Source: Eubacteriales bacterium (GTDB lineage: Bacteria; Bacillota; Clostridia; Oscillospirales; CAG-272). From it: a stretch of DNA of 64,000 bases. The position numbers and the translations under genes were made by a program. The notes beneath the pieces are model-generated. The model saw only the letters and a program-made list of their open reading frames with translations, was not told the origin of the DNA and searched no databases. Positions 11,799 through 36,762 of the stretch are shown here, one piece after another; position 1 is the first letter of the stretch; each line of letters opens with the position of its first letter. The stretch spans positions 20,953 through 84,952 of the forward strand of contig JAZOSR010000035.1 of NCBI GenBank assembly GCA_045657225.1, given 5' to 3'.

Positions 11799-11813
11799 AT
11801 TTTGTAGATATTT
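11799..11813 (+). repeat. left copy of 15-bp direct repeat ATTTTGTAGATATTT (candidate attL / element end)
   Basis: Exact match to 26574-26588; continues cGCAAA vs tGCtAAA. Confidence 0.8.
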
Positions 11814-11841
11814 CGCAAATGTCAACCCCCTATTTTAGAAA

Positions 11842-12900
11842 TTAAGCAAATTTTTTTATGCCGAGGGTGGAGAGCTCGGCGTGGAAGCGTTCTCTTGCGG
11901 TGTCCCAATTAAAGAGCTGGCGGGGCATATCGTTAAGATAATCGCATGCCTCGGCTATCTCATTATCGCTATAATTGGCTATGGGAACGCCCTTTTTAAT
12001 GAAGCGGCGGAGGATCCTATTTTGGTTCTCGTTGCTCCCTCGTTCAGAACTGCAATACGGATGGCAATAAAAGACCGACGTGCGGACGGAATTACCTCTC
12101 CTCGATAATTCCATCCTGCGCCAGTCTGCAAACTCGCTGCCATTGTCACAAGTGATCGTCTTGAAGATCTTACGAAATTTAGTGATACCGAGCTGTTTTT
12201 CGAGCTTATCCAGGACGGCGACGGTGGAGGCGGCACTTTTATCCGTCGCACGAAAAACAAGCTCAAATCGCGTTTTTCGCTCCGTTAAGACCAACAACGT
12301 ATTACCGTGCCGTTTTGTGCCTATGACGCTATCAAGCTCCCAATGACCAAATTCCTCACGCTGCAGCACGTGCGGCGGACGCAGATCAATACAAGTACCG
12401 CGAGGTGGATTTTTTACCTTTTCCACCTTGCGGTATTTTCTTTTTCTCATGCCGCGGCAAACGAGATCCTTATTGGTGAGGCGGCGGAAATATCCCTTGT
12501 CGATATAGTGATAAAGCGTTGTGACACAGATCTGTGTTTTCACCGGGATCTGTTCACGTCTGATCGTTGCGAGAGCGACTGCCGGGGAGAGCTTGCGCTT
12601 AAGGATCAGCTCCTCGATCGTGCGGAGGGTATCGTGATCATTGCTGATCTTTGGCTGCGCTCCCCGGGCCTCTTTATTGAAATCTGCGTTTCTTTGTGCC
12701 AGATCTGCACTATATTTCTTTGTTTCGGTCCAATCATGATTACGATGCATGTAATAACCGCGTTTCAGCTCGTAATAGATTGCCGGATTAGAATAGCCGA
12801 GGATCTGTGAGATTTTTACGGCATTCAAATGAAGCACATTATACATGCGCTCGATCGTCTTTCTTACCTCATACGTCATTCGTTTGTAACCCATTGTCAA
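11842..12900 (-). CDS. IS30-family DDE transposase
   Basis: 352 aa; N-terminal HTH, then GHWELDSV (D), ITCDNGSEF (D), SERGSNENQNRILRRFIKKG (E) - the IS30 DDE spacing and motifs. Confidence 0.92.
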   Translation of the reverse strand: MTMGYKRMTYEVRKTIERMYNVLHLNAVKISQILGYSNPAIYYELKRGYYMHRNHDWTETKKYSADLAQRNADFNKEARGAQPKISNDHDTLRTIEELILKRKLSPAVALATIRREQIPVKTQICVTTLYHYIDKGYFRRLTNKDLVCRGMRKRKYRKVEKVKNPPRGTCIDLRPPHVLQREEFGHWELDSVIGTKRHGNTLLVLTERKTRFELVFRATDKSAASTVAVLDKLEKQLGITKFRKIFKTITCDNGSEFADWRRMELSRRGNSVRTSVFYCHPYCSSERGSNENQNRILRRFIKKGVPIANYSDNEIAEACDYLNDMPRQLFNWDTARERFHAELSTLGIKKFA

Positions 12901-13065
12901 GTGCTCCTTTCACCAAAAAGGCGGAAGGCGGTGGGGCGGCGCCGGCTAACCCGCCTTGGCGCGCGCCCCACACTCGCCATTCCGCCCACTCTTTTGTTTG
13001 AAATTCCTTTTGTCCCTGTAGCCAGACCCTTGACAATCGGGTGCTTTTGCGATCTCTCCCACAGA

Positions 13066-13197
13066 TGAAAATAAGCCCGAAAGGAGGTGATAAGATGGGA
13101 TACTTACGTATATGCAACTGGATCTGCACTCACAGCCAAATGATTGTTGATCTAATTGCAAAGATGCTCGTCATCTTATAAACCCTTACGGGCTTGT
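13066..13197 (-). ncRNA. candidate cis-antisense (antitoxin-like) RNA A; ends approximate
   Basis: Predicted start about 7 nt downstream of the antisense -10; would be fully complementary to the 28-codon ORF and its SD; a weak hairpin plus U-rich run (CCTTTCGGGCTTATTTT) lies opposite the SD region. Confidence 0.4.
13095..13181 (+). CDS. 28-aa peptide, candidate type I toxin (copy A): MGYLRICNWICTHSQMIVDLIAKMLVIL
   Basis: Strong SD AAGGAGGTGATAAG before ATG; same-length homologous ORF at 18009-18095 with several synonymous third-position differences; followed by a 9-bp-stem hairpin. Confidence 0.55.
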   Translation: MGYLRICNWICTHSQMIVDLIAKMLVIL

Positions 13198-13203
13198 GGG
13201 ATT

Positions 13204-13232
13204 ATTATATCACACAAGCCCCTTCTTGTCAA
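13204..13232 (-). promoter_or_regulatory. consensus antisense promoter TTGACA-17-TATAAT convergent on peptide ORF A
   Basis: Minus strand: TTGACA (13227-13232), 17-nt spacer, TATAAT (13204-13209); the -10 lies in the loop of the hairpin after the ORF stop. Conserved in copy B. Confidence 0.65.
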
Positions 13233-13649
13233 GCCTTGGGGTGGAAAACCTTATCCGCGGTTTTCCCCAACACCACACCGTGGTGTCGGTGCCCCTTTCC
13301 CTGCGAGGTGTTTCATAACGCTCTCGCAAACTCAAAAGTGGGGTATATAACGGTTTTTCTAACTTTTCTCTGACACGCGGGGAGAAAACTTAAAAAAGCC
13401 GTTACATCTTCCCGAGGTCTAAACGACCTCGTTTTGATTTTACTCACTCGTTATGTAGCTCCGCTATCAAGGAAGTGAAGGCAAGGCGCAAGCGCCTTAC
13501 TTTCACTTCCCATTTCCATTTTTGGGGAGGCGCCGTCTGCGGACGGCGGCGCGGAGTTGGTTGCCGCGTACGTTCATCAACAGCGACCGGGGGCGGCTGA
13601 ATACCCCCGGGGTTGCAAAGCCGAACAGCAACGAAGGCAGGTGGAAAGG

Positions 13650-13763
13650 ATGGAGAACGTGAGCTTAAGCGACAAGGCAATACAACGGCTGATCGAGTTT
13701 CTCTCACGTGCCGGGTGGACCGACGCACAGATCCTTGATCTGATCAATTACGTAACGAAATAA
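13650..13763 (+). CDS. hypothetical 37-aa protein (MENVSLSDKAIQRLIEFLSRAGWTDAQILDLINYVTK)
   Basis: SD AGGTGGAAAGG before ATG 13650; followed by hairpin CGAGGAG...CTCCTCG. The 68-aa ORF-track start lies in GC-rich hairpin DNA and is unlikely. Confidence 0.5.
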   Translation: MENVSLSDKAIQRLIEFLSRAGWTDAQILDLINYVTK

Positions 13764-13919
13764 AAAATACCCGAGGAGCCCTAACTCCTCGAGTATTCCA
13801 CATATTGCAGATGGGGTGCGAGCCTGCCCGCATCCTGTCTGCCAACCCTGTATGCACAGTATACCACAAACAAATCTATTTGTCAAGCCCCGGGTTTTCC
13901 CGGGCGGAAAGGAAGAAAA

Positions 13920-14102
13920 ATGACCTATCAAGACCTGATCAGCGCCGGCATTGAGATCCAATGCCAAACCGTACTTTACTACTACGACTATAACCGGGAT
14001 AAGCGCGTGCTGCTTTCGCCTGCAGATGCAGCCGGCAAAGAGATCAGATACATGTACGTGGAGGACGACGTGCTTTACATCGAAGTGGAGGTGGAGCTAT
14101 GA
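13920..14102 (+). CDS. hypothetical 60-aa protein
   Basis: SD GGAAAGGAAG; stop overlaps next start (ATGA). Confidence 0.6.
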   Translation: MTYQDLISAGIEIQCQTVLYYYDYNRDKRVLLSPADAAGKEIRYMYVEDDVLYIEVEVEL

Positions 14103-14392
14103 ACGAATTCAATTTCAGCGTATTGATGAAGAAATCGCAAAACTACACGCCGAGCAGCTTGATGCACACCTATGCGCAGCAGCACCCGAGCGCAAGCTTT
14201 TGCTATGATCTGAACGGCAAGCCCTATCTGCTCATTGCCAACGTTCGCTATTACTACAAGCATTGGCGCATAATCGCCGTGTCGCCGAACAGCGAGATGG
14301 TAACCGTCTATCTCAACGATCCCCACGCACTTGTGCCTATGCCGGGCACAGAAGGTAATTGGGGTGAAAGACATTGGGGAGGTTTGAAATGA
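14099..14392 (+). CDS. hypothetical 97-aa protein
   Basis: SD GGAGGTGGAG; ATGA overlaps at both ends. Confidence 0.65.
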   Translation: MNEFNFSVLMKKSQNYTPSSLMHTYAQQHPSASFCYDLNGKPYLLIANVRYYYKHWRIIAVSPNSEMVTVYLNDPHALVPMPGTEGNWGERHWGGLK

Positions 14393-14550
14393 TCGAATTA
14401 TGGGTAAATTATTGGAGCGGAGATTTTTTCGTAGGACATTTTCCAGATATTACATCAGCTCAAAAATATTTTGAAGATCACAAGGAACGTTTTAGAGATT
14501 ATAGAGGTGAAAAATTTGGTTTCCCATACGCTACTCCATTTTTGCGCTAA
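14389..14550 (+). CDS. hypothetical 53-aa protein (MIELWVNYWSGDFFVGHFPDITSAQKYFEDHKERFRDYRGEKFGFPYATPFLR)
   Basis: Below ORF-track cutoff; found by reading on from the ATGA overlap at 14389-14392; SD GGGGAGG upstream. Confidence 0.55.
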   Translation: MIELWVNYWSGDFFVGHFPDITSAQKYFEDHKERFRDYRGEKFGFPYATPFLR

Positions 14551-14649
14551 AACAAAACATAATAGGGGGCGGTTTAACCGTCCCCGCCACCTCAAGCCCT
14601 ACTCCCTACCACTACCACATAGGGTGCTCTGCACCCGGAAAGGATTTTT

Positions 14650-14910
14650 ATGACAGAAGCTACTTACTACACCATCATACTTGTTTGTGTATCTGCTTTT
14701 GCCATTTTACATGGCATTAACTGCTTTATTCAAAGTCGAAAATATTACCAACTCACCATAGATGGTGAAACATTTCAAGTAGTATTTAATTTAGATATAA
14801 GCCGGTGGAGCAAAACCGTTACTTTCACAGATCTAAATTACATAGAGCACACTATGACTTACAACAGAATTGAACTCTATGAGATTAAGCTAAAGGAGCA
14901 TGACCAATGA
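14650..14910 (+). CDS. hypothetical 86-aa membrane-anchored protein
   Basis: SD GAAAGGA; N-terminal hydrophobic segment YYTIILVCVSAFAILHGINCFI. Confidence 0.6.
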   Translation: MTEATYYTIILVCVSAFAILHGINCFIQSRKYYQLTIDGETFQVVFNLDISRWSKTVTFTDLNYIEHTMTYNRIELYEIKLKEHDQ

Positions 14911-15002
14911 AATACTTCCTCCGTGCGCTTGAGATCCTCGGGATCCTCTCCTTCTCGCTTTTTGTGGGCTATCTGCTCTTTCTGATGGTCTACATCGTGT
15001 GA
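14907..15002 (+). CDS. hypothetical 31-aa hydrophobic micro-protein (MKYFLRALEILGILSFSLFVGYLLFLMVYIV)
   Basis: ATGA overlap with the preceding ORF; single predicted TM helix; ends 9 nt before the NTPase ATG. Confidence 0.5.
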   Translation: MKYFLRALEILGILSFSLFVGYLLFLMVYIV

Positions 15003-15011
15003 GGTGCTGCC

Positions 15012-17177
15012 ATGCTCAAGAAGCTCAAGCAAATCAACTACCGTCATTTCATTGCCGCCGGGCTGGTGCTCGGCTCGGCGGCGCTATGTGTGTTCGTTTA
15101 CAAGTACCCTTTGGTGCGTTTGTGGGAAAGCATCATTGCCTTCATCCGCGCGATCGCGTATTCCTTCATGGATCTCCTCGAGCTCCCCGAGGCGCCCGAG
15201 ATCACCCAGACCGTCAACGACTTTTCTCGGGTAGACCTCACCGGTGCGATCGGCATTGACGTTGACGAGCTCTGGCGGCGGCTCTCCGGGGTATGGTCCG
15301 AGATCTTTGTGTGGGAGCATTTTCAATACTATCTGATCTTCCTCTTGTGGCACTTCACGCGCTTCATGTATTACAGCTGCATTATCCTCTTGATCGGCGT
15401 CGTTGCCATCATTCCCGTCGTGCTTACGTGGGACGATATCAACAACGACTACAACCAGGATACCGTGCCCCTTGTGCTATTCAAGCGCTTTGTGGCAGCA
15501 CCCTGCAGGCGCGTGTTCACGTGGCTTCGGGATCTCCTGGTGTTCTTCCGTAGCTCACGATATTGGAGCTGGTTCGTGTTCGTGTGGCTCCTGAACTTCG
15601 GCGTGTTCTCGGTGGCGATCTCGTTCCTTGCCTATTACTTTTGGGCGCTGACCGCCTTTGATCTCTCCACCTTCGGCGTGCAGCTCGTCAAGCTGGCGGC
15701 GGATCTCTTGCTTATGCTGAACACGTTGCCATGGTACGCCTGGGCGGTGATCTTCGCACTCTTGTGGGATCTGTGGCGCCACCGCATTGCCGACGATAAG
15801 ATGCAGCACATGGAAGCACAAAACAAAGGGATGCTGAGCGAGATGCCCATGTGTGCCTTCGTAACGGCTCCGCCGCGTACCGGCAAGACCACGCTGATCA
15901 CCTCCATGGCGATCTCCTACGCCGCCATGTTTCGCCACAATGCCCTCGAGCTCATGACCGGGAACATGCACAAATATCCGCGCTTCCCCTGGATCAACTT
16001 TGAGCTCGATCTCAAGGACGCGATCAGAGCGCACTTCGTTTACAACCTCTATACCGCAAGGGAATGGGTCCGCACGTGGTGTGCCGGCTTCCTTGAGGAT
16101 CCTTGCCGGCAACGGCTGTGGGATTACAACATAGACCTCTATCCGACGGAATACAACGATCACCTTACCGTCACGCCGATCTGGAGAGCACTCGAGAACT
16201 ACGCCCAGGAGTTTTTTATCTACTTCATGCAAACCTCTATCCTGGTGTCTGCCTACTCGATCCGCGAGGACTTTATCTTTATTGACGAGGGGAACTTCCC
16301 GATCGTTGACACCAACTTCTTTGCGCGTGATCCCGCTGCCATCGAGGAGGACAGCAGCTACGCGCACGTCATCGACTACGACATGCTGCGTCTTGGCAAA
16401 AAAATGCTGGAGGACAACCCCAATATAGGCGCCCTCGAATTCGGCGTCGTGCTGATCCCGGAGGTAGACAAGGAGCGCAAGAACGATCTGCGTTTGCGCG
16501 AGCTGAAGCTAAAGGACGACGTCTGCACCCAAAAGAACGACCTATTTAACGAATGGATGAAGATGGCGGGGCAATCTGCCATGGTGGAGAATTTCTGCTT
16601 TTTGCGTATTCTTTCGGATGCACAACGGCCATCCTCCTGGGGCGCGGATGCGCGCGAGCTTTCGATCGTCTTGCACATTGACAAGAAGGGCGACGCTGCC
16701 AACGCCTTGCCGCTCTTCTGGGTGGAGAACGGACTTGTCGGCAAATACCTCTCCTGGTGGGATAGTGTATACGTGAACAGTCGCTTCAAATGGGGCAATA
16801 ACCGTCTGATCACGTGGCTGGGCGAGGGGCTCGGCTCCTTCCTTTATAGCTACCTCCTGCGGCGCAACAACGACTACGGCTATTGGCGGCAGAAGATCCA
16901 GAGCGAGAGCGGAACCCTTGAGAAAGAAAACCTCGAAGAATACAGCTACACGATCGCACGCAAAAAGGACTACGCCGAGCGCTTTGCCTCCGACCATTTC
17001 AAGTCCTACTCACAAATCCAGACCGCCGAGTGTCACGTGGGCCTCGGTGATCTGCCCGCTTACAACTCAATCTATCCCACGTTTGACGAAATGATCATCC
17101 AAAATTCGCACTTCTGCCGGGAACTCATTCAATACTTTGATATCGTACCGGCAGAGGAGAAAGGAGAAAGCAAATGA
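15012..17177 (+). CDS. polytopic-membrane P-loop NTPase (N-terminal ~270-aa multi-TM domain + C-terminal Walker A/B domain); DNA-translocase/assembly ATPase candidate
   Basis: 721 aa; at least four long hydrophobic stretches in residues 13-255; Walker A APPRTGKT at residues 286-293 (nt 15867-15890); Walker-B-like VVLIPEVDKE; no confident family assignment. Confidence 0.8.
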   Translation: MLKKLKQINYRHFIAAGLVLGSAALCVFVYKYPLVRLWESIIAFIRAIAYSFMDLLELPEAPEITQTVNDFSRVDLTGAIGIDVDELWRRLSGVWSEIFVWEHFQYYLIFLLWHFTRFMYYSCIILLIGVVAIIPVVLTWDDINNDYNQDTVPLVLFKRFVAAPCRRVFTWLRDLLVFFRSSRYWSWFVFVWLLNFGVFSVAISFLAYYFWALTAFDLSTFGVQLVKLAADLLLMLNTLPWYAWAVIFALLWDLWRHRIADDKMQHMEAQNKGMLSEMPMCAFVTAPPRTGKTTLITSMAISYAAMFRHNALELMTGNMHKYPRFPWINFELDLKDAIRAHFVYNLYTAREWVRTWCAGFLEDPCRQRLWDYNIDLYPTEYNDHLTVTPIWRALENYAQEFFIYFMQTSILVSAYSIREDFIFIDEGNFPIVDTNFFARDPAAIEEDSSYAHVIDYDMLRLGKKMLEDNPNIGALEFGVVLIPEVDKERKNDLRLRELKLKDDVCTQKNDLFNEWMKMAGQSAMVENFCFLRILSDAQRPSSWGADARELSIVLHIDKKGDAANALPLFWVENGLVGKYLSWWDSVYVNSRFKWGNNRLITWLGEGLGSFLYSYLLRRNNDYGYWRQKIQSESGTLEKENLEEYSYTIARKKDYAERFASDHFKSYSQIQTAECHVGLGDLPAYNSIYPTFDEMIIQNSHFCRELIQYFDIVPAEEKGESK

Positions 17178-17335
17178 CACAGCACAGCACAGCACAGCAC
17201 AGCACAGCACAGCACACCCTCGAGCGTGACATAAAGGACTATTTCAAGCTGCAGGTCGATCGGGATCCCGACGAGCTCGATCTCACCGAGATCTCCAAAG
17301 ACGTGCTTGAGATTATCAGACGTCATATAAAGTAA
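17174..17335 (+). CDS. hypothetical 53-aa protein with (CACAG)7 repeat in codons 2-13
   Basis: ATGA overlap with NTPase stop; MTQHSTAQHSTAQHTLERDIKDYFKLQVDRDPDELDLTEISKDVLEIIRRHIK. Confidence 0.55.
   Translation: MTQHSTAQHSTAQHTLERDIKDYFKLQVDRDPDELDLTEISKDVLEIIRRHIK
17178..17212 (+). repeat. perfect pentanucleotide tandem repeat (CACAG)x7
   Basis: Counted base by base from 17178 to 17212, followed by CACAC. Confidence 0.95.
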
Positions 17336-17363
17336 TACAATTCAAACGTTTAAATTGTATTAC
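17332..17363. promoter_or_regulatory. 32-nt near-perfect palindrome GTAATACAATT-CAAACGTTTA-AATTGTATTAC (terminator and/or operator upstream of the RHH gene)
   Basis: 11-bp perfect arms; one mismatched pair in the centre; 20 nt before the RHH gene ATG. Confidence 0.6.
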
Positions 17364-17382
17364 ATCCTTGTGAGGAGCGATT

Positions 17383-17619
17383 ATGTATAAACAAAGAGAT
17401 AAGCTAATCAGTATACGCGTCAATAGCAAGCTGTTGGAGCAAGTGAAAAAGATCATCGATGCCAAAACCGAGGTCAGAGAAGGTTGGGGTGCTCGTAAAA
17501 TTTATTACTACCGCGACGAAAAACGTCCCTATGAATATGATAAATTCACCATTGCAGATCTTCTCGAAGAAGCCATGGAAAAATACCTCGAGGAACAAAC
17601 ACCTTCAGCGCAAAAGTAA
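17383..17619 (+). CDS. ribbon-helix-helix (CopG/Arc-like) DNA-binding protein
   Basis: 78 aa; SD GAGGAG; N-terminal KLISIRVNSKLLEQVKKII fits the RHH beta-strand plus helix pattern. Confidence 0.7.
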   Translation: MYKQRDKLISIRVNSKLLEQVKKIIDAKTEVREGWGARKIYYYRDEKRPYEYDKFTIADLLEEAMEKYLEEQTPSAQK

Positions 17620-17667
17620 TACACGGCGCCGGAAATGTAATACACGGCGCCGGAAATGTAATACATC
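17616..17667 (+). repeat. 21-nt tandem direct repeat GTAATACACGGCGCCGGAAAT x2 plus partial third copy (iterons)
   Basis: 17616-17636 and 17637-17657 identical; 17658-17667 GTAATACATC. Confidence 0.9.
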
Positions 17668-17731
17668 ATTCAACGTCTGACAACGTATCACATTTAACCA
17701 GGGTTTTTGTATTACTTTGTGCGATCGCCAT

Positions 17732-17773
17732 ATGTAATACATTGCTGTGAGATCTCACTGCAATGTATTACAT
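17732..17773. repeat. 42-nt near-perfect palindrome ATGTAATACATTGC-TGTGAGATCTCACT-GCAATGTATTACAT
   Basis: Only one mismatched pair; carries two more GTAATAC boxes in inverted orientation. Confidence 0.8.
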
Positions 17774-17974
17774 ACTTAAGCAAACAAAAACAGCCCTCGG
17801 GCATTGCCCGGGGGCTTTTCACACTTTTGTGCATTTTGTATATTCAGAAGATCTATTTTGCGCTCCGATCGCCACGCTGCAGCGCAAGTTTTCTGTGTAT
17901 CTTGCACAACTCTCCCCGGGCTCACCCTAACCTCGTATTCACCCACTTGACACTCACGGGCTTGCATAATCCCC

Positions 17975-18111
17975 GAAAAAGGAAACAAACCCGAAGGGAG
18001 GTGATAAGATGCTATACGTACGTATATACAATTGGGTCAACGCTCATTACCACACGATCCTTGACCTAATTGTAATGCTACTCGCACACTTATAACCCCC
18101 AACGGGCTTGT
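17975..18111 (-). ncRNA. candidate cis-antisense (antitoxin-like) RNA B; ends approximate
   Basis: Starts downstream of the antisense -10; CCCTTCGGG hairpin plus TTTGTTTCCTTTTT run opposite the SD region. Confidence 0.4.
18009..18095 (+). CDS. 28-aa peptide, candidate type I toxin (copy B): MLYVRIYNWVNAHYHTILDLIVMLLAHL
   Basis: SD AGGGAGGTGATAAG; same length and frame as copy A; synonymous differences (AAC/AAT, CAC/CAT, ATT/ATC, GAT/GAC) argue for coding constraint. Confidence 0.55.
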   Translation: MLYVRIYNWVNAHYHTILDLIVMLLAHL

Positions 18112-18117
18112 GTGGTT

Positions 18118-18146
18118 ATTATATCATACAAGCCCAATCCTGTCAA
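18118..18146 (-). promoter_or_regulatory. consensus antisense promoter TTGACA-17-TATAAT convergent on peptide ORF B
   Basis: Minus strand TTGACA (18141-18146), 17 nt, TATAAT (18118-18123); same position relative to the hairpin as in copy A. Confidence 0.65.
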
Positions 18147-18176
18147 GTCCTCACCGGGGAGAGAGCTTTCGATCTA

Positions 18177-18362
18177 TTGACAATTTTCCCCTTTTGTGAT
18201 ATCCTTTTATTGTCACACAATTTCATCACAATCACAGGGGAAACTATCTTTGGTAAAAAGTGTTCCTCTCTTTTTCTCATACCCTTGTGGTTGTGGAATT
18301 GTGTGACAACAATGAGTGGACCACTTTTTCGGTGTGCCTCTCGTTGGAGGCACACTTTTTTA
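18177..18362 (+). ncRNA. candidate ~150-nt small RNA (promoter TTGACA-17-TATCCT to strong intrinsic terminator)
   Basis: TTGACA 18177-18182, TATCCT 18200-18205; terminator GTGTGCCTC-loop-GAGGCACAC (18332-18355) plus T6ATTTT; no SD-preceded ORF inside; contains ATTGTCACACAAT / ATTGTGTGACAA inverted boxes. Confidence 0.45.
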
Positions 18363-18379
18363 TTTTCGACATTTTTCAC

Positions 18380-18408
18380 TTGCACGTGCGCCTGCTTTTC
18401 GCTAAAAT
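18380..18408 (+). promoter_or_regulatory. promoter TTGCAC-17-TAAAAT for the zinc-ribbon/nuclease gene
   Basis: Read from sequence; 28 nt upstream of ATG 18436 (SD GGAGG). Confidence 0.6.
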
Positions 18409-18435
18409 ATTTTTATAAATGCTTGGAGGTTTATT

Positions 18436-19176
18436 ATGGCTGACAAACTTATTTGCCCGATCTGTGGCGAACCAACACGAATCTACATGGGAAACGCACG
18501 CAAGGACCGTCTTTGCGGCAAACATGCCGACATGCTTAAGGCAGGTGATCTGATCCTCGGCGAGGACGGAAAATTCACCCTCAAGGATGCACCAAAGCCG
18601 GAGCTGAAGGAGAGAGCTGCGGCAGAACCGGCAGCTGCTTCTGATCTGACGTGCATTATCTGCGGCGAGCCGAGTAATGGGAAGCATTTTTGTGTGAAAT
18701 GTTATCACAAATACAAAAACAAAATCATTTATCTAAAGATAAAAGATTGCGTAGAATATGAACCACTCGGTTATGAATATGAAAGTGATTTAGTATGCGA
18801 AGATGGTCACATTGTAAAAAGTGAACCCGAACGAAACATTGACAATTGGCTTTTCAATCACGATATTAAACATATTTATGAGAGAACTTATCAAGTAAAC
18901 GAAACCGTGAAATTGCGTCCTGACTGGTGCTTACCGGGTTACATCAAAGATGAAGATGGACGCCCTGTTGATGTTTATGTTGAATATTGGGGAATCGAAG
19001 GCAGTGCAAAATATGAAAATATAAAGAATTATAAACTTCCTATTTACCAACAAGAAGGATTAACGCTAATAAACATCAACGCCGAACAAGACAAACGAGA
19101 TATAAGTGCAGCTCTTGATTGGAAAGTTTGGAACAAGAAAAATATCAAACCCTATCGAATCAATTTTCTTAAATAA
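18436..19176 (+). CDS. double zinc-ribbon protein with C-terminal PD-(D/E)xK-like nuclease domain
   Basis: 246 aa; CPICG...CGKH and CIICG...CVKCYH motifs; C-terminal SEPERNIDNWL...YERTY...RPDWCLP...VYVEYWG...Y...K...Y resembles the restriction-endonuclease-like module seen at the N-terminus of some UvrD/helicase IV-like proteins (from memory). Confidence 0.75.
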   Translation: MADKLICPICGEPTRIYMGNARKDRLCGKHADMLKAGDLILGEDGKFTLKDAPKPELKERAAAEPAAASDLTCIICGEPSNGKHFCVKCYHKYKNKIIYLKIKDCVEYEPLGYEYESDLVCEDGHIVKSEPERNIDNWLFNHDIKHIYERTYQVNETVKLRPDWCLPGYIKDEDGRPVDVYVEYWGIEGSAKYENIKNYKLPIYQQEGLTLININAEQDKRDISAALDWKVWNKKNIKPYRINFLK

Positions 19177-19180
19177 GACC

Positions 19181-19214
19181 AAGGAGCTCGCCCAACTGGG
19201 CGAGCTCCTTTTGT
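19181..19214. terminator. bidirectional terminator between convergent genes
   Basis: AAGGAGCTCGCCC-AACT-GGGCGAGCTCCTT 13-bp stem, T-rich after. Confidence 0.8.
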
Positions 19215-19415
19215 TCATCGGAATTTTCTTCCGGCATTTTTAATGCCGAGATAATCCGCTTGTCCTGCCTTAATATGTGTTCCAAAGTGACTTCTTAGCA
19301 TAGCTTCCGATTCTCCATATTGATGAGCAGCAATACCAACGCCAATCCAATATGCACGACGTTGATCCGCAGAATACCTTTTTTTACTTTTGTAATTTTT
19401 TCTTGCTTTTGCCAT
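19215..19415 (-). CDS. hypothetical basic 66-aa protein
   Basis: SD AAAAGGAG 8 nt upstream of ATG; no family recognised. Confidence 0.65.
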   Translation of the reverse strand: MAKARKNYKSKKRYSADQRRAYWIGVGIAAHQYGESEAMLRSHFGTHIKAGQADYLGIKNAGRKFR

Positions 19416-19446
19416 AATTTTTCTCCTTTTATTTTTTAAAATAGGG

Positions 19447-19548
19447 TTGACAAATACCCGACTTTCGGATATACTATTAATGAGCTTGATTCTTCAAGCG
19501 CCGACTTGTGTCGGATAGATGGGGGAGAAAATCCCCCTTTTTTATTTT
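19447..19548 (+). ncRNA. candidate ~65-nt small RNA, antisense to the junction of two minus-strand genes
   Basis: Consensus-like promoter TTGACA (19447-19452)-17-TATACT (19470-19475); terminator GGGGGA-GAAAA-TCCCCC (19521-19537) plus T6ATTTT; internal CCGA..TCGG hairpin. Confidence 0.55.
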
Positions 19549-19997
19549 CGCCCTTTCATAGTTCTTAATCTTTTTCGGTTTGATTTCCCGTTTTTTCCGG
19601 AAATCAAATCTTTTTTTATGTTATTAACGTCCTTGATGGACATTTCGCTTGAAACACCCTTTCTTACAAATTTATGCCCTAATTTAATAGGTGCATCAGA
19701 ATCATCTAAAGTAAGAACAACCGGTCTATATTTTGATTTTCCCGATTGATAATTAGGCAATGCTTTCCCAGAAGACGTTCCAAGTTTAACAAGTGCCAAT
19801 TCATCAAAACGATTGCTGTCAACTACAACCGTTTTGCGATAGTTACCTTTTCCTTCATATCCAGGCTTACGATAGTTTTTTTGCCCTTTAAAATATTCAT
19901 CACGAGTATGTATAATAGTGCCATTAGGAATATTTCTCGAAACATTACGTTTAGGTTTTCCCGGATAATTTGATTTTTTGTTTGCCGTAAATATCAC
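19542..19997 (-). CDS. hypothetical very basic 151-aa protein
   Basis: Open frame with GTG start (SD AAGGAG abuts the start codon, so the exact start is uncertain); Lys/Arg/Gly/Asn-rich; no family recognised. Confidence 0.6.
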   Translation of the reverse strand: MIFTANKKSNYPGKPKRNVSRNIPNGTIIHTRDEYFKGQKNYRKPGYEGKGNYRKTVVVDSNRFDELALVKLGTSSGKALPNYQSGKSKYRPVVLTLDDSDAPIKLGHKFVRKGVSSEMSIKDVNNIKKDLISGKNGKSNRKRLRTMKGRK

Positions 19998-20078
19998 TCC
20001 TTTTGTTCAACTTGCTCTATCAGAGTGCCGTAGCTGCAGCGCGATCGCGCCGAGCTGCGGCACTCTTTGTTTTAAGAA

Positions 20079-22025
20079 TTATTCATTCTTATTTTCATTA
20101 TGTTTTCGGCTCTCTTTGTCCGCTCGTCTATCTCGTCGTCGCTGGCGTACTGCTGAATTTGTTGCACTGCACAAACGAATCACAGGAGGTAAAAAGAAAA
20201 TTGCCAAGATAATCAAAGCAATAATCAACATTAAAAAAACGATTTTCTTAATTGCTCCTTTTAATGCATCCAAAATATCCTGCCATAAGGAACTAGGTGT
20301 TTTTCCTACCCCCAAATCACCAACTATATCATATACAATACCATCACCAAAGCTATTTACGGTATTACTGACGGTAGGAATGACCACAGTGCCTCTTTTA
20401 CTTGTAAAAGCGATATGAGCAATAGATACGTTCAGCATCGCGCTTTTTTCGATGCTGTAACCAACGATAGGTCCTATATAAACCTGATCCATTTCCCATA
20501 CATCCTGAAGCAGTGTACAGCGGTAATCCGCAATTGCATAACGCAAAATTACAACCACCTCATCATTCATTGCAGCTTCTGCACAAACTTTAGAAAAGGC
20601 ATCAAGATCACAAGCATTGATAAAAAGGTTTTTGCTATATTCTGCATATTCACTTTGTAAAATTACACTGTAACTAACCGGGTTCTCAATGACCTCTATT
20701 TTTTTGCACTCTTTTAAGAAATCCTCCGTTAAATAAACGTCTTTATCGCCAAAAAGTCTTTGCCAAAAATTCGGTTCATATTTTCCGTGCGACATTTCAT
20801 AGGTTTCCAAATTGAACAAATCCTTATCGGTATAATCAATATCTAAGTTTCTCCTATACTCTGTATAGAGTGCGGATGCGTCAATACCCTTTGCAACCTG
20901 ATCCTTATAAAGCTTCTCCAACTTCTCTGAAGTAAAAGCTGTCATTTGACTCAAATCGCCCAAATCAAAATCCTCGGGTATGGCGTTGCTTTCGATTAAG
21001 TAAGCCAAACGTTCATAAATAAGAGCGTTTCTATAATCATCAAAAATGTTTTCCTTATCCGTATAAATCCAATCGGCATAATGATATCCTCCACTAAGAG
21101 GAATTTCTTCTTTTATAAATTTATCACCCGCCACCAAATCCATTACGTCAGTATCCTCTGTAATTTTTTGACCGTTTTGAATCATATTACGTGTAACATC
21201 ATCAAAAACGCCTTCACGTGTCACGATAATCGGTGTCAGTTTTACAGAATCATAGCTCGCGCGAATGGAAGAAATATATCCGTATCGCTCCAAAACACTT
21301 TTTTTTACCTTAAAATAAACCGAATGGATTTCATAATGGTCATATTCATCGGAAAGATTACCGTCAACGGTTTTGCCGGCGTTCGGGCTCACCCACGTAG
21401 TATCGTACAGCTTAATTGGCAAAACCTCGCCGTCGCGCACCTCGCAATTCAAGCTTTTATCGAAATCATATCCCGTAAAGATATACATACGGGATATCAC
21501 AAACTCCTGAATCTCGCCCTCTTTTGAAAGAAAAATGCCGGGAATATTATACACACGCTCGCCGGGATTTTCATGCAGGCTCCAAAGCTGCTTTACCACG
21601 TTGCTACCATACGACGTTACCTTATATTTCAAAAAACGGTTATCATTGCTTTTTGAAGCCAACTCCAGACCGTAAAAGTTATATGCCGCTACCACCATAT
21701 TCAAACCAAACTCTACGTGATCATCCGGAGAATTTTCAAATTTAATGCAACCGGGATTATACAAGTAAATGTAAAAGCCGTAATTTGAAGAATTGGTAAT
21801 GCTTTTAAAGCCTACTTCGGCTACAAAAAGCACCTCCACGTCCGTACGCGATTGATCCACGGGATATTTACTTTGATCAAACGGTTCTCCGTTTATTTTT
21901 AGTTGCGCAAGCTCTTTCATTACCACGCTATCATCCGTTGCCGCATCGACGGCGGCTGATGCGCTCATACAAAACACACTCAGCAACGATAAAAGCGCCA
22001 ACATAAGCGCCAATATTTTTTCCAT
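20079..22025 (-). CDS. secreted protein with N-terminal signal peptide and C-terminal TM anchor plus Arg/Lys tail (adsorption/spike-like topology)
   Basis: Start moved to MEKILALMLALLSLLSVFCMSASA (SD AAAGGAGAAGGG). C-terminus IVFLMLIIALIILAIFFLPPVI then RQRRRDRRADKESRKHNENKNE. Confidence 0.8.
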   Translation of the reverse strand: MEKILALMLALLSLLSVFCMSASAAVDAATDDSVVMKELAQLKINGEPFDQSKYPVDQSRTDVEVLFVAEVGFKSITNSSNYGFYIYLYNPGCIKFENSPDDHVEFGLNMVVAAYNFYGLELASKSNDNRFLKYKVTSYGSNVVKQLWSLHENPGERVYNIPGIFLSKEGEIQEFVISRMYIFTGYDFDKSLNCEVRDGEVLPIKLYDTTWVSPNAGKTVDGNLSDEYDHYEIHSVYFKVKKSVLERYGYISSIRASYDSVKLTPIIVTREGVFDDVTRNMIQNGQKITEDTDVMDLVAGDKFIKEEIPLSGGYHYADWIYTDKENIFDDYRNALIYERLAYLIESNAIPEDFDLGDLSQMTAFTSEKLEKLYKDQVAKGIDASALYTEYRRNLDIDYTDKDLFNLETYEMSHGKYEPNFWQRLFGDKDVYLTEDFLKECKKIEVIENPVSYSVILQSEYAEYSKNLFINACDLDAFSKVCAEAAMNDEVVVILRYAIADYRCTLLQDVWEMDQVYIGPIVGYSIEKSAMLNVSIAHIAFTSKRGTVVIPTVSNTVNSFGDGIVYDIVGDLGVGKTPSSLWQDILDALKGAIKKIVFLMLIIALIILAIFFLPPVIRLCSATNSAVRQRRRDRRADKESRKHNENKNE

Positions 22026-22082
22026 CCCTTCTCCTTTCCACAAGAAGGCCTGCGACCTATCGTCGCACGCCTTCCCCTGTTC

Positions 22083-22568
22083 TTATTCAATTACCGTAAA
22101 GTAAATAAATTTTAACGCCGCGCTATTGAAGCTACCCGTATATTCCATCAGCACAATCGCATATCTACCGGGCGTAAACGTCGGATCGCCACTACCTTCA
22201 TAATTGCTTTCCATATGATCAAACACATTGGTTGCATTGCCGGAACCTGCCCCAAGCAACGTTTCACTCTCGCCATCGCGCAAAGCGCCAACACGCCAAT
22301 AAGCCATACGGTCGGTGAACTCTCCATCACGGTAAACCATTACACGATCAAGCGGATTGAACGTTGTTACGGTAACCAAAATTGGCTCTCCCTCTTTATA
22401 CACATCCTTACTGGTATAAATTGAACGTGTGCGAGGATTGGCCGACACGTTGATGATTGTGCCCTCATCCTTTTGTACGTTTTGCTGCTGCAGCATTTTA
22501 CCTGCCACTAACGTGCCGCCAAACGACAACAGAAGCACAAGAACACACAAGACTATGCGCTTCCACAT
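22083..22568 (-). CDS. hypothetical signal-anchored/secreted 161-aa protein
   Basis: N-terminal hydrophobic segment IVLCVLVLLLSFGGTLVAG; beta-rich remainder. Confidence 0.75.
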   Translation of the reverse strand: MWKRIVLCVLVLLLSFGGTLVAGKMLQQQNVQKDEGTIINVSANPRTRSIYTSKDVYKEGEPILVTVTTFNPLDRVMVYRDGEFTDRMAYWRVGALRDGESETLLGAGSGNATNVFDHMESNYEGSGDPTFTPGRYAIVLMEYTGSFNSAALKFIYFTVIE

Positions 22569-22571
22569 AAT

Positions 22572-23135
22572 TTACTTCCAGAACTCTACCAAGTCCTCAA
22601 CGGAAGTACCTACGCAGAGAATGGGCTTAATTTTGACGTTATTCAGGCTGCAATCCTCAGCAAGAACAAGCTCAAGCTTCACGGTGATATCCTCGACCAG
22701 CTCGTCGCCGGGAATCACAACCGTAGAATTGTAACAGCTCTTTACCTCAGCGTCATTGTTGACGTTCGTCAGCTTCAAATACGCGGTGCCCTTAGAACCG
22801 TTCATGCCGGAATTAAAAACGTATGAAGTACCCTTTTTCAGCGTATACGTACCAATCGGAATGCTCGTTGCTTCCTCAGCCGTGCCGCTTACCTTGATGA
22901 TATTATCATCATCAATCGATACGGTCACACCGTTCTCTCCACCGGAAAGCACGCCGTCATCATCTGCAAAATTCATTGCCTGATACAGGTTGTCCTCGTT
23001 TACCTCGCGCAGCTGCCACTCGGTAGGATCCATGTTTTGGAAACCCTTGGAAAGATTACCGATCAGGATCAGACCGGTACAGGCAACCAGGACGATTGCC
23101 ACCATCGTTGCGATCATTTTTCTTTTTGCTCTCAT
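22572..23135 (-). CDS. hypothetical signal-anchored/secreted 187-aa protein
   Basis: SD AAGGAG; N-terminal MIATMVAIVLVACTGLILIG; beta-rich remainder. Confidence 0.75.
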   Translation of the reverse strand: MRAKRKMIATMVAIVLVACTGLILIGNLSKGFQNMDPTEWQLREVNEDNLYQAMNFADDDGVLSGGENGVTVSIDDDNIIKVSGTAEEATSIPIGTYTLKKGTSYVFNSGMNGSKGTAYLKLTNVNNDAEVKSCYNSTVVIPGDELVEDITVKLELVLAEDCSLNNVKIKPILCVGTSVEDLVEFWK

Positions 23136-23261
23136 TTTTTGTTTTCTCCTTTTTTGTTAAAATTTGATTTTTTATACGCCCATCGGGCTACTTGAAACGC
23201 CGGGAAAATACTTGAATTTTTCGCCCTGCTTGCGGGCGGTGCATCATGTTCACCTTCCTTC

Positions 23262-23293
23262 AATGAAAAATGGGTGGGGACGTATCCCCACCC
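23262..23293 (-). terminator. intrinsic terminator after the 101-aa gene
   Basis: Minus strand GGGTGGGGA-TACG-TCCCCACCC followed by ATTTTTCATT. Confidence 0.7.
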
Positions 23294-23372
23294 AAGTTCA
23301 ATGCGCTGTGGGGCAGCGCTATTGACAGATCAGATACACAACCGCCCCCACTGCAATTGTGCTTTTCGGATA

Positions 23373-23678
23373 TCACGCCGACTTTACGGGCTCGATCTTG
23401 ATATCCATCTTTGCCTTGCCGATCACACGAACCTCGCAAAGCGTGGCAACCGTACGGGTGCCGAACTGCTCGATCAGATACTCGAAATCACAGTAATCGC
23501 CGATCATGATATTGGAAATATCAAAACGGACGAAAACCGCTTCCACCTTCTGACCCTGCTCGCCGTCTGCCTGCTGCGCGGGCTTGTCCCAAAGCACGTG
23601 CAACGTGCGTGACATCTTTTGCTCGCCGTCCTTTTCGTAAGAACGCTCCTGCTTGCCTACAATAATCCCTTTTCTCAT
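23373..23678 (-). CDS. hypothetical 101-aa protein
   Basis: SD AAGAGGT; no family recognised (a single-stranded-DNA-binding role would fit the context but is unsupported). Confidence 0.7.
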   Translation of the reverse strand: MRKGIIVGKQERSYEKDGEQKMSRTLHVLWDKPAQQADGEQGQKVEAVFVRFDISNIMIGDYCDFEYLIEQFGTRTVATLCEVRVIGKAKMDIKIEPVKSA

Positions 23679-23718
23679 TTTCTTTACCTCTTTTCTTTAT
23701 GTATTTTTTTAGGGAATA

Positions 23719-25149
23719 CTAAAATGAATTATCGACACACTCAAAACAAGCAATTTTCGAACCATCACGAAAGTAAGCTCTAATCACAAAAATTTCCGTG
23801 CCGTTTATTACAGCGTCAGGCGCAATTAATTCACCATTCTCGTAACGAAATGTTGTACCATTTTCCAGAAGAACTTTATAGTAAAGCAAAACATCAAAAC
23901 GATTTCCGCCATTATCATAAATTTCATCAGTAAGCGTATTCATTACGACAAACCGTACCGCAACATTTAAACGCTGCCCAGGTATCATCACAGTAAACGG
24001 ACGATCAAGAAGCTCTTGATTAGATACTATATCTACAATTTGATGCTTGTATATTAATCGCTTGTTAAGTAACGATTCCAAGACACTTTCATCTGCATTT
24101 TCATAACCGTTAAAAATGCCTGCAGTAATATTTGCACTGACCATTAAAGCCCTATTGCATTCATCCAAAGCAATTTCACTATAGGAATTGCCACTTATTG
24201 TACTACCTGTATATAATGCCTTAGAACAAACATACGCATAAGAGGAAGCGTATGTCAAAAAGCTTTCTCCATACGGAACAAAAGCATATTGACGAACGGA
24301 TTTTTCCCCAAATTCCGCATAAGGAATTGCAACTATCACACGATTCGTATTTAACATTTTAATTCGTATCAAATAAGTGCGAAGCAACATTTCATTTAAG
24401 CCTTGTTCTTCACTGCAATTTAAGATCTCGTAATTACGACCTAATGTTAACTCTTCATTTTTAGAAAACTCCACAACCCAATCGACCACGGCAGTCATCG
24501 AACTTATTTTTTGCACCTCATCAATAGGAGCCAATAACATCTTAAACACACCACCTGCAGATACTACGTTTTGATAAAAAGTAGTATCTACATGCGCCAG
24601 AAATTTAATGCCGCCGTATTCTCCCATAGAAGCTTCGTTATAAGCAAATTCAGACGGCATCAAATAAAAGTCATTACTTGTATATGGCACAACATCCTTA
24701 TCCGCTGTAGGCGAAGAAATAGGATTAACCTTTATTTTACAGTTGGCTTCCATACCATCATAACGAAGTGTAACAATAGCCTCTCCGACTCCCACACCTT
24801 TTACGATAAAACCGTTTGCAACAGGACCGGATTCACCAATCGTTATATTTTGTTCAACAAAAACTATATCAGAGGCAGAAGATTCATATTCCCAAGGTAA
24901 TGTAACGTCCTTATGCGTCAGTTGAACGTCTATCAACCAGCTCTCTCCCAAAGTCAATTGCTTTTCCGTAGTTTGAATGACAAGCTTCGAATTAATGCTT
25001 ACCGAGCCCTGCAAATCCACAACAGAATTCTCCCGATGCATCATATATTCTTTAAGACTTTGAATCAAATTAACGGCTAAAATAATCAAAAAAACAAGTA
25101 AAACAGCCGTTACTAACAAAACAACAATTTTTTTTCGCTTTGCACTCAT
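23719..25149 (-). CDS. membrane-anchored protein with Ig-like (Big_2-type) domain
   Basis: Start set to MSAKRKKIVVLLVTAVLLVFLIILAV, whose ATG overlaps the Rep stop (ATGA). Segment DIVFVEQNITIGESGPVANGFIVKGVGVGEAIVTLRYDGMEANCKIKV resembles bacterial Ig-like group 2 domains. Confidence 0.8.
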   Translation of the reverse strand: MSAKRKKIVVLLVTAVLLVFLIILAVNLIQSLKEYMMHRENSVVDLQGSVSINSKLVIQTTEKQLTLGESWLIDVQLTHKDVTLPWEYESSASDIVFVEQNITIGESGPVANGFIVKGVGVGEAIVTLRYDGMEANCKIKVNPISSPTADKDVVPYTSNDFYLMPSEFAYNEASMGEYGGIKFLAHVDTTFYQNVVSAGGVFKMLLAPIDEVQKISSMTAVVDWVVEFSKNEELTLGRNYEILNCSEEQGLNEMLLRTYLIRIKMLNTNRVIVAIPYAEFGEKSVRQYAFVPYGESFLTYASSYAYVCSKALYTGSTISGNSYSEIALDECNRALMVSANITAGIFNGYENADESVLESLLNKRLIYKHQIVDIVSNQELLDRPFTVMIPGQRLNVAVRFVVMNTLTDEIYDNGGNRFDVLLYYKVLLENGTTFRYENGELIAPDAVINGTEIFVIRAYFRDGSKIACFECVDNSF

Positions 25150-26414: not shown

Positions 26415-26573
26415 TTTTCGCGGTACCCCCTACGACAGTGTTTTGAAGATCTGTACCCCCCTGTTAGCGGGGGGGCACCGCCCGCCCTCCGCCGCGCTTC
26501 GCGCGGCTTCGAGCGGGCATTTTTCGCCTCTCATTCGCTCCTTTGACTTTCTAAAATAGATTTTAACATTCAA

Positions 26574-36498: not shown

Positions 36499-36511
36499 GC
36501 CGCCGATTGGA

Positions 36512-36682
36512 TTAATAATCCTTCTTTTGCTGGTTCTGATTTTTGTTCTGATTGTTGTTTTGATTATTGTTCTGATTTTGGTTGTTCTGGTTGTTCTGGT
36601 TGTTTTGGTTGTTATTCTGATTATTGTTCTGATTGTTGTTCTGGTTCTTGTTGTAGTTTTGGTTCTGATTTTGGTTCTGCAT
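36512..36682 (-). CDS. 56-aa Asn/Gln-rich micro-protein (31 N + 17 Q)
   Basis: Hand translation of the minus strand: MQNQNQNQNYNKNQNNNQNNNQNNNQNNQNNQNNQNQNNNQNNNQNKNQNQQKKDY; SD AAGGGAG 8 nt upstream; own terminator; same strand as all neighbours. Below the ORF-track size cutoff. Confidence 0.6.
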   Translation of the reverse strand: MQNQNQNQNYNKNQNNNQNNNQNNNQNNQNNQNNQNQNNNQNNNQNKNQNQQKKDY

Positions 36683-36762
36683 GATACACACTCCCTTTTA
36701 GCATTGCCCTGCCTTTTGCTGTGCAAGGCTGATGTTAGTATGCGTCAAGCAAAATAAAGTAT

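Follow-up and report, generated by a model that had tools for sequence, protein, structure and literature searches.

Cassette A, a hairpin-shaped unit of ~205 nt, lies at positions 13029-13233 of the window, i.e. the whole 64,000-nucleotide stretch of contig JAZOSR010000035.1 (Eubacteriales bacterium) analysed here. It is a candidate small-peptide gene guarded by an antisense RNA, and comprises a 28-codon open reading frame (ORF) with a Shine-Dalgarno (SD) sequence, a hairpin with a 9-bp stem following the stop codon, and, on the minus strand, a TTGACA-17-TATAAT promoter directed into the ORF. A preliminary description of this DNA had located these features, and all of them were found as placed, by direct reading of the sequence and by a promoter scan in which the minus-strand promoter scored 12/12. 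The description did not mention that the whole cassette, including this promoter, forms a covarying hairpin. The parts of cassette A, in window coordinates, are as follows.

13029..13053, plus strand: left arm, which copies the -35 box and the 17-nt spacer of the antisense promoter (CTTGACAATCGGGTGCTTTTGCGAT); from inverted repeat I2 and the arm comparison in 16 copies.
13030-13035, plus strand: TTGACA box, 59 nt 5' of the ATG.
13067..13079, plus strand: A-rich tract followed by AAGCCCG, which the antisense RNA reads as CGGGCUU-AUUUUC, i.e. the 3' half of the closing stem and the U-tract of a predicted terminator.
13081..13094, plus strand: SD region AAGGAGGTGATAAG, read from the sequence; in the folds it pairs with the post-stop C-rich segment.
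13095..13181, plus strand: 28-codon ORF encoding the peptide MGYLRICNWICTHSQMIVDLIAKMLVIL, read from the sequence.
13182..13198, plus strand: post-stop ACCCTTA (anti-SD) and then CGGGCTTGTG; from inverted repeats I23 and I14, folds and pair counts.
13190..13221, plus strand: local hairpin 3' of the stop codon, GGGCTTGTG (13190-13198) with CACAAGCCC (13213-13221).
13204..13232, minus strand (13232->13204): antisense promoter TTGACA-17-TATAAT with a TGn extended -10, 12/12 by promoter scan.
13067..13197, minus strand: predicted antisense RNA of ~131 nt, rod-like, covering the whole ORF, SD and start codon; its ends are deduced.

The SD together with the preceding GA gives GAAAGGAGGTGAT, 13 nt complementary to what we take to be the 3' end of 16S rRNA. 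The segment 13182-13198 has two possible partners: in the rod form it pairs with the SD and AAGCCCG, in the local hairpin with 13209-13221. The arms of the local hairpin extend to 13 nt (inverted repeat I14), and the hairpin is retained with a different sequence in the diverged copy L046. Its loop holds ATTATA (13204-13209), the complement of the antisense -10, so that the -10 does sit in the hairpin loop as described earlier. This hairpin had been taken for a terminator as well. No U-run was found 3' of it (CCTTCTTGTC is present there) and the scan tool gave no terminator-like call; it was therefore rejected as an intrinsic terminator.

The cassette is known from 16 distinct copies, namely cassette A and a paralogue, cassette B, in the window, and 14 from metagenome-assembled genome (MAG) or metagenome contigs of gut Clostridia (alignment A2). 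The ORF, the SD and the antisense promoter are kept in all 16. A pattern scan of one genome per GTDB species gave 7 more copies in 6 gut MAG contigs of Clostridia, Eubacteriales or Oscillospiraceae. Since the pattern required the SD and ATG, copies were also collected in an unbiased manner, starting from homologues of the adjoining transposase and searching their contigs by nhmmer with a cassette profile, which added 6 distinct copies and the strongly diverged L046. At least four lineages of the element, those of the window, L034, L036 and L049/L050, retain both cassettes, L002 holds a tandem pair, and the copies are always located on mobile elements. The SD is invariant in 15 copies, and L046 has GGGGGTG at the same spacing. 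The occurrence of 16 copies, together with the covariation described below, rules out a chance origin of the arrangement.

Beyond these contigs the searches returned nothing of the kind. The cassette had no blastn match in cultured phage and plasmid records (72,556 plasmid records), nor did a tblastn search of those records with the consensus peptide bring up a meaningful match. No true copies emerged when IMG/VR and the JGI metagenomes were scanned for the pattern; two JGI matches (L051 and L052) were rejected as ordinary genes matching by chance. No cassette was detected by nhmmer or by architecture scan at distant IS30-like transposase loci from IMG/VR (L007-L033) or in the related elements L039-L044. 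Rfam gave nothing at the gathering threshold and only chance-level miRNA-type matches at E<=10.

The reading frame of the ORF is open in 16/16 copies and the remaining five frames contain stops. Its length is 28 codons, or 29 in one copy, and the sole indel within it is an in-frame 3-nt insertion (L050b); the leader and the post-stop flanks carry many indels of 1-4 nt. In L046 a 28-codon ORF persists, encoding MRLFQICDFFTTYGNMIIEAIAILITTF with the same residue pattern. In the fast-evolving, unpaired and saturated codons (codons 2-6 and 12-17), 0 stops were present among 176 codons as against 7.6 expected from composition, while the same regions contained 8 and 2 stops in the other sense frames and 14, 13 and 2 in the reverse frames. 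The pN/pS ratio was 0.64 in frame, compared to 0.76 and 1.16 in the shifted frames, with synonymous sites saturated, and was therefore rejected as decisive proof of coding. Taken at the level of sequence, the 28-codon ORF is probably translated.

The peptide is amphipathic and moderately hydrophobic (grand average of hydropathicity, GRAVY, ~1.1; hydrophobic moment, muH, ~0.3) and its hydrophobic C-terminus (IAKMLVIL) is conserved. The preliminary description had recognised in it no member of a named toxin family, and searches in Pfam, PADLOC, phage, plasmid and Rfam collections agreed. PADLOC gave no match for the peptides, and the only Pfam matches of ten peptides were a sub-threshold SapB_2 (17.9 bits, cut-off 21) and a weak DUF6053 (E 0.13). 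No candidate came up when a protein database was searched with the extended ORF, indicating that the ORF is not called by gene callers. An ORF of ~22-24 codons (MTSIFAIRS...) is present on the antisense strand in copies L001, L002, L003, L004, L036 and L049, starting at the mirror-image ATAAGATG after GAGGGG. It has only 14 codons in cassette A, and no comparable ORF was found in cassette B or in several other copies; it was hence rejected as a second gene and is probably a by-product of the dyad symmetry.

In 2.5 kb the promoter scan gave three promoter-like sites, of which 13232->13204 alone was perfect. Among the 16 copies, one has TTGACG and one TACAAT, and TGn is present in all. The RNA starting at ~13197 folds as a rod (-42.2 kcal/mol, z = -4.7), closed by AAGCCCG.AAGGG with CCUUU.CGGGCUU and followed by UUAUUUUC (AUUUUC). 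This U-rich tail is conserved across the 16 copies and is often longer, e.g. AUUUCUUUUUUA. Because the promoter, the closing stem and the U-tract are conserved and the RNA folds as a rod, the prediction of a discrete ~131-nt RNA complementary to the SD, the AUG and the whole ORF is well supported at the level of sequence, in agreement with the earlier proposal. In B-type copies the promoter opposes the neighbouring genes, meets a bidirectional terminator and serves no gene, yet remains perfect; its role therefore appears to be intrinsic to the cassette and not primarily that of a transposase promoter. A second minus-strand promoter, TTGACA-17-TATACT (11/12 with TG, 13886->13858), is followed by a terminator with a 16-bp stem and a T-run (13799-13764). 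Positions 13755-13886 may thus specify a small RNA (sRNA) of ~95 nt, convergent with a small hydrophilic ORF, MENVSLSDKAIQRLIEFLSRAGWTDAQILDLINYVTK (plus strand, 13650-13763), and abutting its stop. This promoter, unlike that of the cassette, has no complementary arm.

On the sense side, the predicted RNA fold pairs the SD and AUG (GGAGGUGAUAAGAUG) with the last ORF codons and the post-stop C-rich stretch (CCCC). About 95% of cells in this helix are paired across the copies. Compensatory changes occur in L036b, where ATAAAATG is matched with CATTTTAT and likewise GAUAAAAUG with CAUUUUAU, and a GC pair is replaced by AU at columns 64:177. Two more helices, GCAAU/AUUGC and GUCAA/UUGAC, lie within the ORF. 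The apical loop (codons 12-17) is hypervariable and is likely the determinant of first contact and specificity, which would prevent cross-talk between the two copies of an element. The features of the cassette agree with the type I traits given by T1TAdb, which include a peptide of 20-60 aa, SD/anti-SD pairing, a 5'-3' long-distance interaction, and a Sib RNA spanning the whole ibs ORF (PMC8594479). The sense fold and its variable loop are features expected for a type I toxin mRNA and its antisense partner (PMC8594479).

When searched by nhmmer, the cassette matched its own reverse complement with E values of 1e-13 to 1e-23. The whole cassette is one long imperfect hairpin of ~100 bp (fold z = -5.3), whose outer helix joins the antisense -35 and 17-nt spacer (right arm, 13209-13233, overlapping the antisense promoter) to the left arm at 13029-13053. 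The similarity of the arms stops exactly at the -10 in 16/16 copies. Over the full hairpin 89.9% of cells are paired, versus 28-41% when the partners are slid. Compensatory double changes were present in 19 of the 57 hairpin pairs, a number reached by 0/500 shuffles (shuffle mean 7.7), and 13 of the 19 are in the arm helix (helix 1), including positions outside the local hairpin. The arms covary per cassette, not per element: those of A and B differ, and in L046 the left and right arms still match although both are quite different. It is therefore unlikely that the pattern is due to a shared DNA-binding protein. In folds of single-stranded DNA (ssDNA) the -35 pairs with the distal arm in 16/16 copies and TATAAT is largely unpaired in many. 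The promoter-bearing polarity folds more stably in 16/16 copies, to which G/T composition may contribute. An excess of minus-strand over plus-strand wobble pairs in the arms was rejected as proof of the folding strand, since the right arm is G/T-rich and such a bias is expected from composition.

Cassette A resides within an insert of ~14.7 kb (about 11800-26500), flanked by genes for threonine synthase and a metallophosphoesterase on the left and for trigger factor, ClpP and ClpX on the right. The following features of the insert bear on the cassette.

11842-12894, minus strand: IS30-family (DDE) transposase (NF033563, 213.8 bits, cut-off 80), at one end of the insert.
25146-26414, minus strand: Rol_Rep_N/Rep_trans rolling-circle initiator, at the other end.
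12920..12986, no strand assigned: GC-rich bidirectional terminator hairpin, from fold and sequence, in the stretch that separates the cassette from the transposase start (minus-strand ATG at 12894).
17946..18148, plus strand: cassette B, 76% identical to A; its ORF (18009-18095) encodes MLYVRIYNWVNAHYHTILDLIVMLLAHL.
18146->18118, minus strand: antisense promoter of cassette B, 12/12 with TG.

Most other genes of the insert belong to no family. In related contigs the same transposase, cassette A and downstream block lie beside different chromosomal genes. In two contigs (L045 and L049) Rep follows directly on the transposase, a sign of a circular or tandem junction. The varied insertion sites and the transposase-Rep junctions thus identify the element as a mobile, rolling-circle-replicating unit. 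A Rep_trans element must produce ssDNA. The diverged cassette L046 sits in an element encoding Rep_trans and Zot, and this L045/L046 relative looks like a Gram-positive inovirus integrating by means of a transposase. The prophage-borne, Bacillus-like setting suggested in the preliminary description therefore stands only as regards a mobile element; what is present is a rolling-circle element with an IS30-family transposase and Rep_trans, and with inovirus-like relatives. In three lineages, i.e. the window, L049 and the Zot-bearing L045/L046 element, the antisense promoter lies on the strand that is sense for Rep and the transposase. In Ff phages the counterpart of the Rep-sense strand is the displaced or packaged strand, and by this likeness the promoter-bearing strand may be the displaced or packaged one here.

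Cassette A always lies ~130 nt 5' of the transposase start with its promoter facing the transposase, whereas cassette B follows a gene block encoding a protein of 716-721 aa; A and B share their orientation. The 721-aa neighbour had no relatives in IMG/VR. The left side of cassette A is insulated by the strong GC hairpin with U5 (12920-12986), which stands directly 5' of the transposase ribosome-binding site (RBS). In a read-through RNA, the left-arm sequence CCCGAUUGUCAAG (13029-13040) can pair with the transposase start region CUUGACAAUGGG (12890-12901). The GC hairpin and this pairing look like protection of the transposase from outside transcription. One copy, in L006 (1-8000), is in a different kind of element, with genes for a PcfJ-like protein, DUF3102, a Lin1244-type replication initiator, sigma-70 region 4 and a collagen-like DUF4988 protein of the tail-fibre type, all of them encoded in the direction of the antisense promoter. 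The cassette has thus moved between element types.

Some further features were noticed elsewhere in the window. CAGCA pentanucleotide repeats (17177-17215) begin right after the ATG at 17175 and overlap the end of the 721-aa gene; this tract is possibly slippage-prone. At 17330-17780, iteron-like direct repeats of the GTAATACA type and palindromes surround a 78-aa ORF (17383-17619) with a weak Arc-like repressor match, and a bidirectional terminator follows at ~17786-17815. The region looks like an operator, a partition site or an origin region. At 18177-18360, a plus-strand promoter (TTGACA-17-TATCCT with TG) and a plus-strand terminator (18331-18356) bound a structured leader or sRNA of ~130 nt, downstream of which a 246-aa CxxC zinc-ribbon protein is encoded (18436-19176); its C-terminal half matches the PADLOC candidates PDC-S69 (1e-16) and HEAT_CxxC_PD-DEXK. 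Eleven overlapping copies of a T/G-rich repeat with a 12-nt period (TTCTGATTnTTG...) are present at 36510-36691.

From the sequence features observed, their conservation in 16 copies, the covariation of the helices and the open frame, we hold with moderate confidence that the cassette is an antisense-RNA-guarded small-peptide unit on a rolling-circle mobile element, similar to type I toxin-antitoxin (TA) systems and closest in layout to Ibs/Sib. In the double-stranded (integrated) state, expression of the peptide would be held off by three layers. The perfect sigma-A-type promoter would give the ~131-nt antisense RNA (about 13197->13067), complementary to the SD, the start codon and the ORF; the SD and AUG of the sense RNA would be paired with the ORF 3' end and the post-stop C-rich stretch; and the duplex DNA would offer no canonical sense promoter. 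Both RNAs would have to be made, with the antisense RNA repressing translation and the peptide being harmful or otherwise active.

Several observations weigh against this interpretation. A -10 was looked for at 16-18 nt from the upstream TTGACA. The box itself is present 59 nt 5' of the ATG, as the preliminary description had stated, but no -10 follows it in any of the 16 copies (the hexamer at 17-nt spacing, 13053-13058 in cassette A, is TCTCTC there and non-consensus in every copy), and the idea that the box works as a sigma-A promoter was rejected. Farther 5', A- and B-type cassettes alike are preceded by terminators, and no promoter is conserved there. In the peptide, the best 19-residue Kyte-Doolittle window is 1.1-1.8, compared to 2.2-2.5 for what we take to be the sequences of reference type I toxins; polar residues are conserved (N8, N11, D19 and K23), a central Pro15 occurs in 7 copies and no charged tail is present. 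No toxin family was found in Pfam for ten peptides at E<=10. The conserved N8, N11, D19, I21 and A22 coincide with nucleotide helices within the ORF, and since part of the residue conservation thus falls together with RNA helices, protein-level selection is modestly supported and not proven. Why the outer helix, with the antisense promoter in it, should covary does not follow from a simple TA model. The type I TA-like character proposed earlier therefore holds, at the level of sequence, for peptide size, antisense promoter and SD sequestration, and fails for an own sense promoter and family homology; the moderate hydropathy weakens it.

Since neither predicted RNA contains both arms, and terminators but no conserved promoter lie upstream, ssDNA is the simplest setting for the pairing of the arms, and the sense RNA would most likely arise from the cassette folded as ssDNA. 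The non-template -35 and -10 of this hairpin would come from the right arm and the template from the left half; a transcript from it would therefore be the sense RNA, starting at ~13063-13066, and the A-rich tract at 13067-13079 would also lie approximately at its 5' end. This geometry would account for the missing sense -10. Accordingly we suggest, tentatively and with less confidence than for the antisense-guarded peptide cassette as such, a switch governed by DNA strandedness, whereby a single promoter yields the sense RNA when the DNA is an ssDNA hairpin and the antisense RNA when it is duplex. When the element is single-stranded, after entry or in rolling-circle replication, its Rep-sense strand would fold, the arms rebuilding the -35/spacer duplex with TATAAT left open. 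RNA polymerase would then transcribe into the hairpin, giving a sense RNA that starts roughly 15-20 nt 5' of the SD and encodes the 28-residue peptide; this RNA could in addition serve as a primer for the complementary strand. In the duplex state, the same promoter would fire the opposite way, and the antisense RNA would silence leftover peptide mRNA. Such a switch would explain together why the sense side has no -10, why the arms covary and why both the ORF and the antisense promoter are conserved. It overlaps the TA-like interpretation and does not exclude it.

Among known type I systems, the nearest is Ibs/Sib of E. coli, whose variable segments are thought to give cognate specificity. Like the cassette, it has a tiny ORF wholly under a cis-antisense RNA of ~110-150 nt with a strong promoter (PMC8594479), and it is present as several diverged copies, in its case per genome. 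However, Ibs peptides have 18-19 residues and are far more hydrophobic, and there is no sequence or Rfam similarity. In the cassette, moreover, no -10 accompanies the promoter box on the toxin side, and the locus as a whole, antisense promoter included, forms a hairpin. The preliminary description had instead compared the layout with the 3'-overlapping TxpA/RatA and BsrG/SR4 systems. These do share a Gram-positive mobile element, convergent transcription and a small peptide, but their RNAs overlap at the 3' ends only (PMC8594479), whereas the predicted overlap in the cassette is complete, covering the whole ORF and SD as in Ibs/Sib, so that this comparison was not upheld. In their toxins, which are 38-59 aa long, a transmembrane helix is evident and the tail is charged; the cassette peptide shows no homology to them and has moderate hydropathy. 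In hok/sok and AapA/IsoA, long-distance 5'-3' pairing similarly masks the SD and start codon and gives the mRNA an inert fold (PMC8594479). Unlike these, the cassette has neither a mok-type leader ORF nor evidence of 3' processing, and its antisense RNA covers the whole ORF and not only the leader.

Other explanations of the same locus have to be weighed. The cassette might be an ssDNA promoter or complementary-strand origin, of the Frpo or single-strand origin (sso) kind, with the ORF secondary or incidental: the Rep-sense strand, laid bare by rolling-circle replication or packaging, would fold to the ~100-bp hairpin, on which RNA polymerase would make a primer for the complementary strand. 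This agrees with the presence of Rol_Rep_N and Rep_trans on the element and with its inovirus-like Zot and Rep_trans relative, with the match of the cassette to its own reverse complement, with the compensatory changes and pairing over the full hairpin, with an arm helix that spans exactly the -35 and spacer and halts at the -10 in all copies, with arm covariation per cassette, with the -35 pairing and greater stability of the promoter-bearing polarity in all ssDNA folds, with the location of the promoter on the Rep/transposase sense strand in three lineages, and with the absence of both arms from either RNA. The minus-strand origin of Ff phages is likewise RNA-polymerase-dependent and palindromic, with promoter-like boxes in the folded strand. 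CS-6, the conserved motif of ssoA, is TAGCGT/A; it is absent from 15/16 copies on both strands, the one match being incidental. Otherwise the cassette resembles ssoA-type origins as a long imperfect palindrome in a rolling-circle replicon, with fixed orientation to Rep and promoter-like boxes, and ssoA-type origins provide a precedent for RNA-polymerase-dependent initiation (PMC4595007). In location and structure it accordingly looks like an sso: Rep_trans on the element, a strong hairpin and a fixed orientation. It differs from an sso, however, in holding a conserved translatable ORF, and related elements carry two, one or no copies (none in L039-L044). The other precedent is Frpo/ssi, where an ssDNA stem-loop rebuilds the -35 and -10 and transcription or priming occurs only while the DNA is single-stranded (PMC9849209, PMC11541004). 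In the ssDNA folds of all 16 cassette copies the consensus -35 and the spacer are duplexed with the covarying distal arm, which recalls such a stem-loop. The cassette -10, in contrast, has no complement and would sit in a bubble, and the promoter is contiguous and perfect (12/12) in the duplex, where it fires the opposite way, while Frpo no longer works after conversion to duplex DNA; in the cassette, a change of DNA state would alter only which strand serves as template and which way transcription runs. The blastn search of plasmid records showed no sequence similarity to Frpo/ssi, and the host is a Firmicute rolling-circle, inovirus-like element and not a conjugative leading region. An origin alone needs no 13-nt SD, optimally spaced ATG or open 28-codon frame, all of which are conserved. 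The plasmid and phage records searched hold nothing similar, G/T composition could partly cause the polarity bias, and template switching at a quasi-palindrome could homogenise the arms without any function. We regard an origin with an incidental ORF as a rather unlikely but serious rival.

It is distinctly unlikely, in our estimate, that the antisense RNA controls a small protein other than a toxin. Such a product might act in regulation or signalling, as the peptide of prgQ/Anti-Q (pCF10) does, or be a very small protein of the virion or its assembly, comparable to pVII/pIX of Ff phages. The ORF and antisense features are the same as for a toxin, the hydrophobicity is weak for a membrane toxin, the conserved C-terminus (IAKMLVIL) is hydrophobic, and the element itself is inovirus-like. 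In prgQ/Anti-Q, as in the cassette, a short peptide gene faces a convergent promoter making an antisense RNA, and enterococcal pheromone-inhibitor precursors are peptides of ~22 residues beside such a promoter. The N-terminus of the cassette peptide, however, is not signal-peptide-like, no receptor gene of the RRNPP or PrgX type is nearby and no conjugation operon follows; the two diverged copies per element with hypervariable middles also speak against it, and most of the nucleotide conservation at the C-terminus can be put down to pairing with the SD/start region. Still less probable is that the cassette is simply a strong promoter whose structured leader, with its terminators, precedes genes read in the same direction. 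In the window these would be the IS30-family transposase and, when the element is circular, Rep; in L006 they would form an operon. The opposite ORF would then be a by-product. The A-type promoter does face the transposase from ~300 nt away, the L006 promoter is co-directional with genes on both sides, and the leader contains two terminators, as attenuation or antitermination leaders do. Against this, all B-type promoters oppose their neighbours and end in a bidirectional terminator, serving no gene and remaining perfect; a strong terminator stands right before the transposase RBS and, together with the left-arm/start-codon pairing, makes the element seem built to block such transcription; and the SD, ATG and open frame on the other strand are left unexplained.

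By the tests run, the cassette appears to belong to no named toxin, antitoxin-RNA, Frpo or ssoA family. If it is an antisense-RNA-guarded small-peptide cassette, it would represent an undescribed family of peptide and antisense-RNA cassettes on rolling-circle, inovirus-like elements with IS30-type transposases, confined, within the reach of our searches, to uncultured gut Clostridia. To our knowledge, almost nothing is known of the biology of such Gram-positive rolling-circle, inovirus-like elements. If the strandedness switch also holds, its promoter would be the first to give an mRNA from ssDNA and the antisense silencer of that same gene from double-stranded DNA. The Frpo concept would then extend from Gram-negative conjugative plasmids to ssDNA elements of Firmicutes, and the switch would offer these elements a simple answer to the timing of early functions and complementary-strand synthesis.

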